Below are positions 3,253-8,453 of a stretch of DNA of 26,547 nt, piece by piece; within the stretch, counting starts at the first letter, position 1, and each line of letters starts with the position of its first letter. The position numbers and the translations under genes were made by a program. The DNA is from Burkholderiales bacterium (GTDB lineage Bacteria > Pseudomonadota > Gammaproteobacteria > Burkholderiales > SG8-41): the NCBI GenBank assembly GCA_044346435.1, contig JBIIZE010000001.1, positions 1 through 26,547 on the forward strand, written 5' to 3'. A model generated the notes under the pieces. That model did not search any database, was not told the origin of the DNA, and saw only the letters and a program-made list of their open reading frames with translations.

Positions 3253-4407
3253 ATGGATTTTCACTTTACCCCCGAACAGGAACAGTTCCGCGACGCCGTG
3301 CGCGGATTTGCCGAGCGCCATCTGCGCGACGGTGCGCTGAAGCGCGCGCATCAGGAAGAACATCCCTGGGATGTCGCCAAGCTGATGGCCGAACAGGGCC
3401 TGATGGGCATCACCATGAAGGAAGAAGACGGCGGCCAGGGCGGCTCGCTGATGGACGCGATCATCGCCATCGAAACCATCGCGTCGATCTGCCCGCGCAG
3501 CGCCGACGTGATCCAGGCCGGCAACTTCGGCCCGGTTCGGGTGCTTGCCGAATACGGCACGCCGGACCAGAAAAAACGTTATCTCGACAAGATTCTCGCC
3601 GGTGAATCGGTGATCACCGTCGGCATGACCGAACCGGAAGCGGGTTCGGCCGTCACTGATCTCAAAACCAGCGCAACACCGGACGGCGAGGGTTATCGCA
3701 TCAACGGTGTGAAAGTATTCCAGACGCATGCGTCGTACGCCGACGTGATGTTGACCTATGTGCGTTTCGGTCCCGGCGTCGGCGGCATCGGCTCGGTGCT
3801 GATCCCGCGGGATGCGGAAGGATTCAAGCAAGGCGCACCGTCGAAATTTCTCAACGGTGAAGAGTGGGTGCAGACCTATCTCGACAACGTCTATGTCGGC
3901 CCCGAAAACGTCATGCTGAAAGAAGGCGGCTTCAAGAAGCAGATCGCCGGCTTCAACGTCGAGCGCATCGGCAACACCGCACGTTCGCTGGCTTTCGGCC
4001 GTTACGCCTACAACATCGCCCGCGAATGGGCGCTGCAGCGCAAACAGTTCGGACGCCTGTTGTGCGAATTCCAGGGCCTGCAGTGGAAATTCGCCGACAT
4101 GAAGATGAAGCTCGATGCCGGCCAGTTGCTGCTGTATCGGGCCGCCGTAAATGCCGACAACGGAATTCCCTCGGCCGATGACACCGCGATAGCCAAGGCC
4201 TTCTGCAACCAGGCCGGCTTCGACATCTGCAATGAAGCGATGCAGATCATGGGCGGCATGGGTTATACCGATGAATCGCTGGTGGAATACTGCTTCCGCA
4301 AATGCCGCGGCTGGATGATTGCCGGCGGCTCGATCGAAATTCTGAAAAACCGCATTGCCGAAGGCATTTTCGAGCGCAGCTTCTCACAGCGCCCGCCCAA
4401 GGCCTGA
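3253..4407 (+). CDS. Acyl-CoA dehydrogenase family protein
   Basis: Motifs GMTEPEAGSAV, INGVKVF, R.QFGR.L.EFQGLQW..ADM and AMQIMGGMGY; 384 aa. Confidence 0.95.
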   Translation: MDFHFTPEQEQFRDAVRGFAERHLRDGALKRAHQEEHPWDVAKLMAEQGLMGITMKEEDGGQGGSLMDAIIAIETIASICPRSADVIQAGNFGPVRVLAEYGTPDQKKRYLDKILAGESVITVGMTEPEAGSAVTDLKTSATPDGEGYRINGVKVFQTHASYADVMLTYVRFGPGVGGIGSVLIPRDAEGFKQGAPSKFLNGEEWVQTYLDNVYVGPENVMLKEGGFKKQIAGFNVERIGNTARSLAFGRYAYNIAREWALQRKQFGRLLCEFQGLQWKFADMKMKLDAGQLLLYRAAVNADNGIPSADDTAIAKAFCNQAGFDICNEAMQIMGGMGYTDESLVEYCFRKCRGWMIAGGSIEILKNRIAEGIFERSFSQRPPKA

Positions 4408-4422
4408 TCTGACCGACAACCC

Positions 4423-4452
4423 TGCCGCGCCCCGTGCGCGGCAATTTTTATT
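4423..4452 (+). terminator. Intrinsic terminator-like hairpin
   Basis: TGCCGCGC-CCCGT-GCGCGGCA is a perfect 8-bp stem, followed by ATTTTTATT, 15 bp after the ACAD stop. Confidence 0.5.
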
Positions 4453-4457
4453 GCGCC

Positions 4458-6533
4458 ATGTCCAACAACAAACTCTATCAAGCCGTATTTGATCCCCGCT
4501 CCATCGCGCTGATCGGCGCGTCGAGCGACGAAAAGAAAAACACTTCACGCCCGCAGCGTTATCTCAAGCGCCACGGCTACCAGGGCCAGCTGATTCCGGT
4601 GAACCCGGCACGTGCGGAGATTTTCGGTGACAAGGCTTATCCGGATGTCACCTCCATCCCCGGCGAAGTCGACCATGCTTTTGTGATGGTCCCGGCCAAG
4701 GCTGTGCCGGAAGCGGTGAAGCAATGCGTTGCGAAAAAAATCCCTGTGGTCACGGTGTATAGCGACGGCTTCGCTGAAACCGGCGCGGAAGGTCGCATCA
4801 AGCAGCTGGAACTGAACGAGATCATCCGCGGCAGCAATACGCGGCTTGTCGGCCCCAACTGCATCGGCCTGATGAGCACGCAGACCCATCTCGCGCTGTC
4901 GGTCAACGCCGTGCTGGAAAAACTCGACATCACCCCCGGCGGCCTGGCGATTGTGTCGCAGTCCGGCAGCATGATGGGCGGTCTGATGTCGCGCGGCCTC
5001 GGGCGCGGCGTCGGCTTCTCGAAACTGATTTCAGTCGGCAACGAAGCCGACCTCGGCGTCGGTGAACTGGCCGGTCTGCTGGTCGATGATCCGCATACCG
5101 ACGCGATCCTGCTGTTCATGGAAACCATCCGCGACGCCAAACATCTGGCGGATGCCGCACGCCGCGCCTATGACGCCAACAAGCCGGTGATCGTCTACAA
5201 GCTCGGCCGCTCGGAAGTGGGACAGGACCTCGCCGCTTCACACACCGGCGCGATGGCCGGCACCGATGAAGCGGTGGATGCCTTCTTCAAGGCCCATGCG
5301 ATGCTGCGCGTCGATACGCTGGAAGCGCTGTTCGAACTGCCGGCGCTGGTGAAAGGCCGCAAGCCGAACAAAAAACACCGCGTGGCGGCGATGACCACCA
5401 CCGGCGGCGGAGCCGCCTGCGTGGTCGACCGCATCGGCACCTATGGTGTTGACGTCGTCGGTCCGACCGATGCCCTGGTGGCTGCACTGGCGAAGAACAA
5501 CATCACCATCAACAAGTCGCGCATCACCGACCTGACGCTGGCCGGCGCGAAAAAGGAAATCTACGGCGGCGTGCTCAATGCGCTGCTGGCTTCCGACCAT
5601 TGCGACCTCGTGCTCGCAGTGGCCGGCAGCTCGGCGCAGTTCCAGCCGCAGATCGCCGTCGAACCGCTGGTCGAAGCCGACCGCGGCGACAAGGCGCTGG
5701 CGGTGTTCCTCGCGCCGCATGCCGAAGCTTCGCTGAAACTGCTGGCCAGCGCCGGCGTCGCCGGTTTCCGCACGCCGGAGTCCTGCGCGGATTCGATTCG
5801 CGCCTGGAAACAATGGGTTCCGCCGCTGGCCATTCCGGCAGCCGATGCCAAACGTACGGCGGCAGCCGATGCCTTGCTGAAGGCGGCGCCGGGCAAACAG
5901 CTCAATGAACAACAGGCCTGTGGCGTCTTCGGCGCGCTGGGCGTGCCGCAGGCGCAGACTGCGGTGATGGCCGATGCCGGCGCCAAGGTTGATATCGGTT
6001 ATCCGGTGGTCGCCAAGATTCTGTCTCCGGACATCGCGCACAAAACCGATGCCGGCGGTGTGGTGCTGAACATCGCCGATGCTGTGGCGCTGAAACAGGC
6101 GGCAACCGACATCTTCACCCGCGTCAAAGCCAAACATCCGCAGGCCAAACTGAACGGCATCCTGGTGCAGCGCATGGAGCGCGGCCTTGCCGAAGTGATC
6201 GTCGGTTACAAGCGCGACCCGCAGGTCGGCCCGCTGGTGGTGATCGGGGTCGGCGGCGTCCTCGCCGAGATCTACAAGGATTTTGCGATGCGTCTGGCGC
6301 CGGTCACACCGGAAACCGCGCTGCAGATGATTGAAGAAGTCAAAGGCCTCGCGGTGATCCGCGGTTACCGGGGCATGACCAAAGGCGACTGCAAGGCGCT
6401 GGCGGACGCGGTGGCGGCATTCTCGCAACTGGCCGCCTTCGATGACATCGCCGAAGCTGAAATCAATCCGCTGATCGTCCGCAAAGAAGGCGACGGCGTG
6501 GTGGCGGTGGACGGCTTGATCGTACGCCAATAA
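4458..6533 (+). CDS. Acyl-CoA synthetase (ADP/NDP-forming), fused alpha-beta; acetate-CoA ligase family
   Basis: N-terminal CoA-binding domain (PRSIALIGAS, GPNCIG), SQSG, phospho-His motif ASHTGA, and a C-terminal ATP-grasp region (KILSPDIAHKTDAGGVVL, EAEINPL). Start placed at ATG 4458; no SD is visible. Confidence 0.92.
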   Translation: MSNNKLYQAVFDPRSIALIGASSDEKKNTSRPQRYLKRHGYQGQLIPVNPARAEIFGDKAYPDVTSIPGEVDHAFVMVPAKAVPEAVKQCVAKKIPVVTVYSDGFAETGAEGRIKQLELNEIIRGSNTRLVGPNCIGLMSTQTHLALSVNAVLEKLDITPGGLAIVSQSGSMMGGLMSRGLGRGVGFSKLISVGNEADLGVGELAGLLVDDPHTDAILLFMETIRDAKHLADAARRAYDANKPVIVYKLGRSEVGQDLAASHTGAMAGTDEAVDAFFKAHAMLRVDTLEALFELPALVKGRKPNKKHRVAAMTTTGGGAACVVDRIGTYGVDVVGPTDALVAALAKNNITINKSRITDLTLAGAKKEIYGGVLNALLASDHCDLVLAVAGSSAQFQPQIAVEPLVEADRGDKALAVFLAPHAEASLKLLASAGVAGFRTPESCADSIRAWKQWVPPLAIPAADAKRTAAADALLKAAPGKQLNEQQACGVFGALGVPQAQTAVMADAGAKVDIGYPVVAKILSPDIAHKTDAGGVVLNIADAVALKQAATDIFTRVKAKHPQAKLNGILVQRMERGLAEVIVGYKRDPQVGPLVVIGVGGVLAEIYKDFAMRLAPVTPETALQMIEEVKGLAVIRGYRGMTKGDCKALADAVAAFSQLAAFDDIAEAEINPLIVRKEGDGVVAVDGLIVRQ

Positions 6534-6545
6534 AAGCATTAAGCA

Positions 6546-6567
6546 GCCGGGTCGCCCGCGACCCGGC
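6546..6567. other. Strong GC stem-loop immediately upstream of the redoxin RBS
   Basis: GCCGGGTCGC-CC-GCGACCCGGC is a perfect 10-bp inverted repeat with no U-tract, directly abutting the SD GGAGGAG (6568-6574). Confidence 0.6.
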
Positions 6568-6582
6568 GGAGGAGCGTGACAC

Positions 6583-7101
6583 GTGGCACAAAGTCTGGGC
6601 AACAAACTGGACACGGGAGACCGTTTTCCCGATCTGGATCTGTCGCTGGTCGGCGGCGGGTCACAACGCATTTCGGCGCTGGCCGGTAACGGCTGGAGCG
6701 TCGTGCTCTTGTACCGCGGCGACTGGTGAAGATACTGCCGTCAGCAGTTGGCTGACTACCAGACCTGGCTCCCCGACCTGAAACAGCTCGGCATCACCGT
6801 CATCGCCGCATCCGTGGATATGCCGGAGGCTGCGCTCCAGTCCGTACGCGTGAACAAACTCGCCTTTCCGGTCGCTCACAGCCTGGATTACCAGGAGATC
6901 AGTCGCCGCACTGGCGCGTTCATCGAGCATGAGCGCAAAATCCTGCAAGCCACGGGATTTCTGCTTAAACCCGATCTGACTGTACATGTCGCCACTTATT
7001 CAACCGGCCCCATCGGTCGCCTCACGCCCAACGACGTGAGTTCGATCGTGCGACTGAACCTCGCGAAAACAACAGCACCCCAAGGAGAAAAAACATGTTG
7101 A
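6583..7101 (+). CDS. AhpC/TSA (peroxiredoxin-like) redoxin, probable selenoprotein (Sec49, UxxC)
   Basis: SD GGAGGAG, 8-nt spacer, GTG at 6583. The frame reads MAQSLGNKLDTGDRFPDLDLSLVGGGSQRISALAGNGWSVVLLYRGDW-TGA(6727-6729)-RYCRQQLADYQ and continues in frame with the 6748..7101 ORF. The TGA aligns to the first Cys of the family motif YRGxWCxxC. A SECIS-like hairpin follows. 172 aa if read through. Confidence 0.85.
6735..6762 (+). promoter_or_regulatory. Bacterial SECIS-like element
   Basis: Upper stem GTCAGC/GCTGAC (6740-6745/6751-6756) with apical loop AGTTG (G at loop position 2, followed by U). The loop begins 16 nt after the UGA. Possible lower stem CTG/CAG. Confidence 0.65.
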
Positions 7102-8453
7102 TGGAACAACTCGCCGACTACGCCATCCGCGAACAGACTTCGAAACTGCCGCCGCAGGTGATCCACCACGCCAAACGCGCGGTGATCGACTGGTACGCTG
7201 CGCTGCTGCCGGGCAGCATCGTCAATCCGGCCGTTCTGATGGAAGAAGCGTTTGCCGAGGATCTGGATCGCGGTCGTGCCCGTCTGGCCACCGGCCGTCG
7301 CGCCACCCTGCGCGCCGCCGCGCTGATCAACGGTGCGGCTTCGCACTCGGTCGAGTTTGATGACATCTACCGCGATGCCGGTTACCACCCGGGCAGCCCG
7401 ACGATTTCGGCGGCGCTGGCCGCGGCACAGGCGTCCGGTGCCTCTGGTGACCGTTTCCTGCGCGGCGTCATCGTCGGCTATGAAATCTCCACGCGTATCG
7501 GCGAAGCGGTGATGCCTTCGCATTACAAGTATTGGCACACCACCGGCACCGTCGGCGCTTTCGGCGCGGCCGCTGCAGCAGCCACCATCCTCGGCGCCAA
7601 CAAGGAACAGTTCATGCACGCGATGGCAACGGTCGGCAGTTTTGCTTCCGGCCTGCAGCAGGCCTTCCGTTCGCAGGCGATGACCAAGCCGCTGCATGGC
7701 GGTCACGCTGCGGACGCCGGCTGCTGGGCGGCAATGGCGGCAATGAAGGGCCTCACCGGCGCGCTCGACATGCTCGAAGGCGAAGTCGGTTTCGGCAATG
7801 CGATGAGCGTGAATCCGGACTGGAGCAAGGCCACAAAGGGACTGGGCGTGGATTACCACATCAACCAGATGACCTTCAAAAACCACGGCTGCTGCGGCCA
7901 TACCTTCCCGTCGATTGACGGCGCGCTGCATCTGCAAAATCAGCACGGCTTCACCCACAAGGATGTGAAACACATCAAGCTGCACACCTACAAGGCCGGA
8001 CTCAACATCATCGACAACAACAATCCCGAAGGCGAGTACCAGGCCAAGTTCAGCATCCAGTACACGGTTGCCCACGCGCTGGTGCGCGGCAGCGTGCGAC
8101 TCAATGCTTTCGATCCCGATCACCTCAGTGATCCCGACGTGCGCGCGCTGCTGAAAAAGATCGAGCCGATCGCCGACCCCGAGATTTCCGCGGGTTATCC
8201 GAACCGCCGCGAATCACGGGTGGAAATCGAATTGAACGACGGTCGCAAGTTCGAACACTTCCAGCCCTATCGCAAGGGTGATCCGGAGCTGCCGCTGACC
8301 GACGATGAGCTGAACGGCAAGTTCACCGAACTCGCCGAGCCGGTGATCGGCAAGGCCGCTGCAGCCTCGCTGCTGAAACAGCTGTGGGATACCGAAAAGC
8401 TGGCCAACGTCGATTACGACACCGGCAGCGGATCGAAGCGCGCTGCGGGCTGA
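7095..8453 (+). CDS. MmgE/PrpD family protein (paralog 2)
   Basis: Motifs NGAASHSVEFDD-x6-HPG, WHTTGTVG, KPLHGGHAA, FKNHGCCGH, AKFSIQY and KGDPELPL. SD AGGAG at 7083-7087. The start overlaps the redoxin stop by 7 nt. Confidence 0.92.
   Translation: MLMEQLADYAIREQTSKLPPQVIHHAKRAVIDWYAALLPGSIVNPAVLMEEAFAEDLDRGRARLATGRRATLRAAALINGAASHSVEFDDIYRDAGYHPGSPTISAALAAAQASGASGDRFLRGVIVGYEISTRIGEAVMPSHYKYWHTTGTVGAFGAAAAAATILGANKEQFMHAMATVGSFASGLQQAFRSQAMTKPLHGGHAADAGCWAAMAAMKGLTGALDMLEGEVGFGNAMSVNPDWSKATKGLGVDYHINQMTFKNHGCCGHTFPSIDGALHLQNQHGFTHKDVKHIKLHTYKAGLNIIDNNNPEGEYQAKFSIQYTVAHALVRGSVRLNAFDPDHLSDPDVRALLKKIEPIADPEISAGYPNRRESRVEIELNDGRKFEHFQPYRKGDPELPLTDDELNGKFTELAEPVIGKAAAASLLKQLWDTEKLANVDYDTGSGSKRAAG

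Follow-up and report, generated by a model that had tools for sequence, protein, structure and literature searches.

A peroxiredoxin-like redoxin gene with a predicted in-frame selenocysteine codon in a catabolic operon of a Burkholderiales bacterium

In the window analysed here (the whole stretch of DNA, 26,547 nucleotides), an in-frame TGA codon at 6727–6729 of the forward strand raises the question of whether it ends a short open reading frame (ORF) or is read as an amino acid within one longer gene. A Shine–Dalgarno sequence, GGAGGAG (6568–6574, + strand), read directly from the DNA, stands 8 nt before a GTG start codon at 6583, 48 sense codons run from this GTG to the TGA, and the frame is then open up to a TGA stop at 7099–7101. 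The ORF listing (translation table 11) cuts the region into 6583–6729 (48 amino acids) and 6748–7101 (117 amino acids, TTG start), the layout that the first-pass annotation had described and that the reading of the sequence confirmed. Read across the TGA, the region is one gene of 172 codons with the AhpC/TSA fold (6583–7101, + strand), running from the GTG to the TGA stop, and its read-through product contains LLYRGDW-U-RYCRQQLADY. The interrupting TGA falls on the first position of the redox motif W-U-R-Y-C, as predicted U49, in a column that is conserved among relatives, and its partner Cys52 is encoded at 6736–6738 (+). Considering the results of the present analysis, we regard it as highly probable, at a probability of about 0.93, that 6583–7101 is a single gene whose UGA at codon 49 is a genuine selenocysteine (Sec) codon; judged from sequence comparison, the active-site residue is almost certainly selenocysteine.

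Within the order, 22 other genomes carry the TGA in the same column, in proteins that share 32–93% identity with that of the window, and all 23 Sec-form genes carry TGA at column 49, never TAA or TAG. The six-frame search of 40 relatives returned 12 same-genus orthologues (66–93% identity) with exactly one in-frame TGA each, together with several more distant matches (32–38%) that have an in-frame TGA too. Ten distant Sec forms from other families of the order (32–47% identity) also keep the TGA, and in the 400-genome sample of the order, 14 genomes had a match with E < 1e-15, 12 of which carried the TGA. Members of the genus clade have YRGDW-TGA-RYC as the surrounding motif, those of the second clade YRGHW-TGA-(P/A)YC. 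A conserved Shine–Dalgarno sequence and start codon lie exactly 48 or 44 codons before the TGA, with ATG in place of GTG in several relatives, and all genus orthologues have the same Shine–Dalgarno sequence and start position. Pairwise dN/dS (Nei–Gojobori) was 0.13–0.43 over the 47 codons before the TGA and 0.10–0.25 over the 99 codons after it; since both are below 1, purifying selection acts on both parts, and both are translated in this frame.

Sec alternates with Cys at this column. Full-length database relatives of 75–79% identity (P0002–P0004) have Cys at the position of Sec49, and the DNA of syntenic orthologues (P0002 and P0003; syntenic Cys loci L025 and L027) shows TGC at codon 49, consistent with the earlier proposal that the TGA occupies the place of the first Cys in the redox motif. 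The gene order around P0002 and P0003 is that of the window, namely CoA ligase, redoxin, MmgE/PrpD, TctC and ICL-family lyase. Distant homologues (P0063–P0065, L020, and L036–L037) also have Cys at column 49, and 385 loci in other phyla, including Chloroflexota, Deinococcota, Actinomycetota, Alphaproteobacteria and others, matched YRG[HD]WC[RP][YF]C in the contig scan, for which the pattern of alignment A3 was back-translated with Cys codons and which therefore yields Cys forms only. In the maximum-likelihood tree, the three close Cys forms were placed singly within the Sec genus clade, which suggests repeated Sec-to-Cys replacement with at least three separate switches within this clade, and at least five Sec/Cys state changes occur across the whole tree.

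Two further observations concern the Sec forms. In all 13 clade-A Sec forms, the UGA is directly followed by AGA or AGG (6730–6732 in the window), codons that each make up only about 1% of the window's Arg codons, and CGC stands there in one close Cys orthologue; AGA or AGG after the UGA may exert a context effect on termination versus Sec insertion. Furthermore, a second, paralogous Sec redoxin, 32–36% identical and with the motif YRGHW-U-PYC (L018 in G013, L019 in G022, and G004:C392:4738–5157), is present in some same-genus genomes as well as in further families of the order, its gene neighbourhoods being unrelated; no copy was found in the assembly that contains the window.

The genome assembly, which consists of 445 contigs and is 75% complete, contains a complete selA (TIGR00474, 574 bits), directly downstream of it the first 281 residues of selB (TIGR00475, 346 bits), cut by the contig end, and a tRNA-Sec with anticodon UCA on contig C374. 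Of the expected sel genes, selA, the N-terminal half of selB and tRNA-Sec were thus recovered, and selD was not found: the NCBIfam search of the 75%-complete assembly for selD gave nothing above cut-off, and tblastn with the SelD of a relative returned just a 25%-identical paralogue on contig C67. The Pfam SelB-wing_3 search of the genome for the SECIS-binding C-terminal half of SelB likewise gave nothing above cut-off. We read the missing selD and SelB-wing_3 as assembly incompleteness rather than absence; selD is present in 27 of 30 other genus genomes, including all 20 that are at least 90% complete. The selD of the genus mostly carries an in-frame TGA of its own, in the motif GGG-U-GCK (L040, G423:C7, approximately 1560–1600, and 20 other genomes), and a few genus members have no stop in selD at that site and presumably encode Cys forms. 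The search of the genome for FdhA as a second selenoprotein (TIGR01553) returned only sub-threshold molybdopterin-enzyme fragments with no in-frame TGA and was uninformative. Reassignment of TGA to Trp or Gly is excluded because TGA is the commonest ordinary stop in the genome, ending 390 of 659 long ORFs.

A predicted bacterial SECIS hairpin, GUCAGC/AGUUG/GCUGAC, lies at 6740–6756 (+), with a 6-bp stem (6740–6745/6751–6756) and a 5-nt apical loop (6746–6750). The first-pass annotation had let this hairpin start 16 nt downstream of the UGA; the 6-bp stem and the AGUUG loop are real, but 16 nt is the distance to the apical loop, and the stem starts 10 nt after the UGA. Within the loop stands the TTG (Leu56, 6748–6750, +) that gene callers wrongly take as the start of the 117-amino-acid ORF, a length that also occurs among the truncated database entries. 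Taken by itself, the hairpin has a folding energy of −9.3 kcal/mol (z = −2.3), and 6 of 200 shuffles fold equally well, so that it is only modestly better than chance, suggestive but not decisive, and the comparative data give it significance. The bacterial SECIS consensus model of Zhang and Gladyshev (2005), as summarised in PMC13188914, has a loop of 3–9 nt, a stem of 4–16 bp, a G in the first two loop positions, a spacing of 16–37 nt from the UGA and a minimum free energy of at most −7.5 kcal/mol (PMC13188914). The hairpin agrees with this model in loop, stem and energy, in the G at loop position 2, and in its UGA-to-loop spacing, which at 16 nt is the lower bound of the published range. 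Like the SECIS elements of Escherichia coli fdhF/fdnG, it follows the UGA directly inside the ORF, and its small apical loop has G followed by U close to the start; it differs from them and from the bacterial consensus in its minimal 6-bp stem, in having no bulged U and in the spacing at the lower limit. The Rfam scan of 6400–7300 gave chance-level matches only and no bacterial SECIS family.

Among the 23 Sec forms (alignment A2, 48 nt from the UGA), the six proposed pairs were formed in 100% of cells, with double compensatory changes at three of the six pairs (U-A to C-G or G-C, A-U to G-C, and G-C to A-U). The covariation score was reached by none of 500 column shuffles of this alignment, a control that overstates significance because the genomes are related and not independent. 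When the 3′ arm was shifted by 1 to 3 nt, pairing fell to 1–51%, and RNAalifold independently predicted the same helix. Loop bases 1–4 (AGUU) and the spacing are invariant, the loop and spacing being common to both Sec clades, and at the last loop base 22 sequences have G and one has A. In the metagenome scan, for which the pattern W-UGA-x-[YF]-C-R-x-Q-L left bases 2–6 of the 3′ arm unconstrained, at least 120 DNA stretches were found, giving at least 118 usable copies; among the matches listed, all six pairs form in 95 of 118 and five in a further 18, with many distinct stems (such as GUCAAC/GUUGAC, GCCGUC/GACGGC and GGCGGC/GCCGCC) and an upstream peptide that is mostly FYRGHW. The motif W-U-x-[YF]-C is conserved in all Sec forms.

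The synonymous sites of the hairpin are constrained in the Sec forms. Codons +4 to +9 (CGT CAG CAG TTG GCT GAC) are identical in 12 of 12 genus orthologues; of the 64 degenerate codons outside the hairpin whose amino acid is invariant, only 14 are frozen (Fisher p = 0.0015, which overstates significance since the sequences are related). Leu56 is encoded by TTG in 22 and TTA in one of the 23 Sec forms, and by CTG in the close Cys orthologues. In the window, TTG accounts for approximately 7.5% and CTG for approximately 66% of Leu codons, and CGT for approximately 14% of Arg codons, these shares being approximate values from long high-GC3 ORFs, some shadow ORFs included; the earlier remark that the TTG in the loop departs from the dominant CTG is thus upheld. 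The Cys orthologues encode the same RQQLAD by way of CGC, CAA or CAG, CTG and GAT, which leaves a C-A mismatch and an altered loop, and they fold best into another, weaker hairpin of 5 bp. Conservation of the hairpin, which had been named as a check on the Sec reading, was thus found with compensatory changes in the Sec forms, and its loss in the Cys forms.

At the protein level, the read-through product matched Pfam PF00578 (AhpC-TSA) over residues 12–134, a match that spans the TGA (62.2 bits against a cut-off of 26, 5.8e-17). The AlphaFold2 model built from alignment A3 had a mean pLDDT of 91.5, and solved peroxiredoxins matched it at TM 0.77–0.79. The central strand 38–44 lies upstream of the UGA, and neither half could thus fold alone. 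In the model, Sec49 stands just before helix 50–61, at its N-terminal cap, three residues ahead of Cys52, which is invariant in alignment A3. The nearest solved chain by sequence was ResA (4nmu), in which W-C-K-P-C aligned with W-U-R-Y-C in the HMMER alignment. In the HMMER alignment to AhpC (1we0), Cys52 fell on the peroxidatic Cys (F-V-C-P) and Sec49 on the Thr/Ser position, and the catalytic Arg of AhpC (ADRGTF) aligned with Ala123, which is conserved among close relatives; this alignment is of low identity and moderate certainty. On that low-identity alignment, the peroxidatic Cys is present and two of the three residues of the peroxiredoxin triad (Thr/Ser and Arg) are absent, which makes a thiol:disulfide oxidoreductase likelier than a classical peroxidase. 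The most likely chemistry would be thiol:disulfide exchange through a Sec49–Cys52 selenenylsulfide; the selenolate may possibly reduce peroxide as well. The N-terminus, MAQSLGNKLD, contains no hydrophobic segment, and the protein is thus probably cytoplasmic.

Three other explanations of the locus were weighed against Sec insertion. Selenium-free read-through, by which, for example, a near-cognate Trp or Cys would be inserted at the UGA while the hairpin did no more than slow the ribosome or impede release factor 2, appears very unlikely. Structure-stimulated stop-codon read-through does exist in bacteria, Cys works at position 49 in the orthologues, and selD was not found in this assembly; the genome nevertheless invests in selA, selB and tRNA-Sec, and a UGA at a redox Cys position is the classic Sec/Cys pair. 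The hairpin, moreover, has the features of a SelB-type element, with an invariant A-G-U-U loop start, a G at position 2 and a spacing fixed at 16 nt in both Sec clades and, among the matches listed, in 118 metagenome copies, and the lineages that left the UGA moved to TGC and let the hairpin decay.

A genuine stop, arising from a nonsense mutation, a pseudogene or a sequencing error and leaving a 48-residue peptide and perhaps a 117-residue fragment from TTG 6748, is scarcely credible. Gene callers do annotate the locus in this way, and 58 of 65 database relatives are fragments of 95–123 amino acids that begin after the TGA, as had been predicted for automated annotation. The NCBIfam selenoprotein-related models all stayed under their cut-offs for this protein (PrxU NF040737, 20.9 of 270 bits; SelL-related NF040769, 21.6 of 120 bits; WAxxUGC NF041054, 18.9 of 300 bits), and the lack of a selenoprotein model at cut-off explains the truncation in public annotation. 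TGA is also the usual stop of this genome, and one Sec-form copy (L030, G079:C221) carries an extra TAG 34 codons past the TGA, which may reflect gene decay, a frameshift or a faulty assembly. However, TGA, and never TAA or TAG, recurs in the 22 other genomes, which span several families, dN/dS stays below 1 before and after it, an error cannot recur across independent assemblies, the TTG start of the fragment has no Shine–Dalgarno sequence and lies inside the hairpin loop, and the fold requires strands from both halves. That the hairpin is a by-product of the conserved R-Q-Q-L-A-D with no RNA function has next to no probability and was rejected, because, although every member of the genus clade, Cys forms included, keeps the peptide RYCRQQLADYQTW unchanged, the Cys orthologues break the stem and change the loop with synonymous codons for the same peptide, the second Sec clade encodes R-R-Q-L-V-G or R-R-Q-L-A-A and keeps the six pairs by compensatory changes, and the non-preferred CGT and TTG codons are fixed in 12 of 12 orthologues. 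The Sec49 reading, as first put forward in the first-pass annotation, is supported by the conserved TGA (12 genus and 10 distant forms), the TGC of syntenic orthologues, the covarying hairpin and the Sec machinery, and none of the refutation tests named in that annotation went against it.

Taken as a Sec protein, the redoxin would belong, by its PF00578 domain and U-x-x-C motif, to the predicted class of Prx-like thiol:disulfide oxidoreductases, a long-known class that the first-pass annotation had also named. The first prediction of this class (PF00578, UxxC/UxxU) is credited to Kryukov and Gladyshev (2004) in PMC9312934 and PMC13188914, and the class has the status 'predicted with high confidence', without experimental verification (PMC2398784, PMC9312934, PMC13188914). 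Under the name 'Prx-like 1', it was represented in GOS by 225 Sec and 2,740 Cys sequences (PMC2398784), and the class was counted in 28 organisms in 2016 (PMC5029168). In Betaproteobacteria, FdhA was the only selenoprotein family credited in 2006 (PMC1794560). The present protein resembles the class in its AhpC/TSA domain, in Sec as the first residue of U-x-x-C, in the SECIS directly downstream within the coding region, and in Cys homologues that far outnumber the Sec forms; the class representative is WP_010940744.1 (Geobacter), and the likeness here is one of domain and motif. The published Prx-like lists consulted here are mainly of Deltaproteobacteria, Clostridia and marine metagenomes, whereas the gene described here is from a Burkholderiales-like metagenome-assembled genome and stands in a catabolic operon.

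Canonical peroxiredoxins (AhpC and BCP/PrxQ; PDB 1we0, 3hjp and 5iox) have the same fold (TM 0.77–0.79), with Cys52 on the peroxidatic Cys, but their catalytic Arg position is Ala123 here according to the low-identity alignment. In Sec-containing Prx (TxxU), Sec replaces the peroxidatic Cys, whereas here Sec stands three residues earlier, at the catalytic Thr/Ser position. The W-C-x-x-C of ResA/TlpA-type oxidoreductases (PDB 4nmu and 1st9), the best match among solved structures, aligns exactly with W-U-R-Y-C, and this ResA-like motif suggests the same dithiol/disulfide exchange chemistry. ResA and TlpA are, however, membrane-anchored and extracytoplasmic, unlike the redoxin here with no hydrophobic N-terminal segment, and the NCBIfam ResA model NF002854 gave 32.5 bits against a cut-off of 170.

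The redoxin gene is embedded among genes for organic acid catabolism. Its upstream neighbour encodes an ADP-forming acyl-CoA synthetase (4434–6533), and the ATG of the MmgE/PrpD-family gene downstream (7095–8453) overlaps its final codons by 7 nt (ATGTTGA, 7095–7101, +). The operon also contains a second MmgE/PrpD gene and genes for an SMP-30-type lactonase, an acyl-CoA dehydrogenase, TctC, a PrpB-like lyase, GGT and a LeuC-like dehydratase. The order CoA ligase, redoxin and MmgE/PrpD is kept in the Cys forms and in all genus orthologues whose loci include neighbours. None of the window's flanking genes is present in the neighbourhoods of the second Sec clade (L017–L035), and the link to the operon is thus specific to the genus clade. 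Local novelty is limited to the fixed place of the gene in this organic-acid catabolic operon.

Several features of the locus stand beside these results. Across the genus orthologues (4434–8453 compared with L006–L016), the redoxin shares 66–93% identity and the flanking enzymes 86–99%, the redoxin diverging faster. The spacer from the stop of the CoA ligase gene to the Shine–Dalgarno sequence of the redoxin is filled by a GC-rich 9-bp hairpin with a 4-nt loop (6546–6567, approximately −20 kcal/mol in context), and a hairpin of differing sequence stands at the same place in most genus orthologues, Sec and Cys forms alike. As no T-run follows, it is not a typical terminator, and it may be an element of mRNA stability, processing or translation control. 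The final residue of the redoxin, Cys172 (TGT), overlaps the ATG of the MmgE/PrpD gene (7093–7101, ACATGTTGA), and a C-terminal Cys is retained in most genus forms, again in both Sec and Cys forms; Cys172 could be a third redox residue or a mere by-product of the gene overlap. The best NCBIfam match of the acyl-CoA dehydrogenase (3253–4407) was 3-sulfinopropanoyl-CoA desulfinase, at 259 bits far under the 600-bit cut-off, which we take as a weak lead to organosulfur acid metabolism and not as a membership call.

Considering these results, we propose the following scenario for the expression and function of the gene. The product would be a 172-residue cytoplasmic redoxin of peroxiredoxin fold in which UGA 49 is read as selenocysteine. 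By analogy with the established mechanism of E. coli, the mRNA hairpin at 6740–6756 would present its AGUUG loop 16 nt past the UGA, and SelB-GTP carrying Sec-tRNA(Sec) would bind the hairpin and bring Sec to the ribosome, competing there with release factor 2. Because Sec49 caps helix 50–61 three residues before Cys52, the U-x-x-C pair would act like the C-x-x-C centre of thioredoxin or ResA: the selenolate may attack a disulfide, possibly a peroxide, and Cys52 may resolve the intermediate as a selenenylsulfide. What the data show is selection on a single frame, conservation of the UGA, alternation of Sec and Cys, covariation in the hairpin, the Sec machinery and the fold; actual selenium insertion, the chemistry and the substrate are what we infer. 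A role of the selenoredoxin as a dedicated part of the conserved catabolic operon, rather than as a general antioxidant, is a tentative and rather unlikely proposal, with which two features are compatible: the redoxin keeps an invariant position throughout the genus orthologues, and its gene overlaps the following one by 7 nt. In such a role, it could reduce a disulfide or an organosulfur substrate or intermediate, or it could keep the overlapping MmgE/PrpD enzyme reduced.

The present analysis adds nothing new to the mechanism of Sec decoding and amounts to an annotation correction within a known kind of selenoprotein. The gene is systematically mis-annotated, and the correction concerns an entire clade of uncultured Burkholderiales-like bacteria as well as at least 118 contigs from metagenomes. 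Furthermore, the Sec and Cys orthologues, which at 75–79% identity share the same peptide while only the Sec forms freeze the synonymous sites, provide a natural experiment on SECIS constraint. The job of a selenoredoxin inside a catabolic operon is the mildly novel question that this locus poses for the biology of these bacteria.
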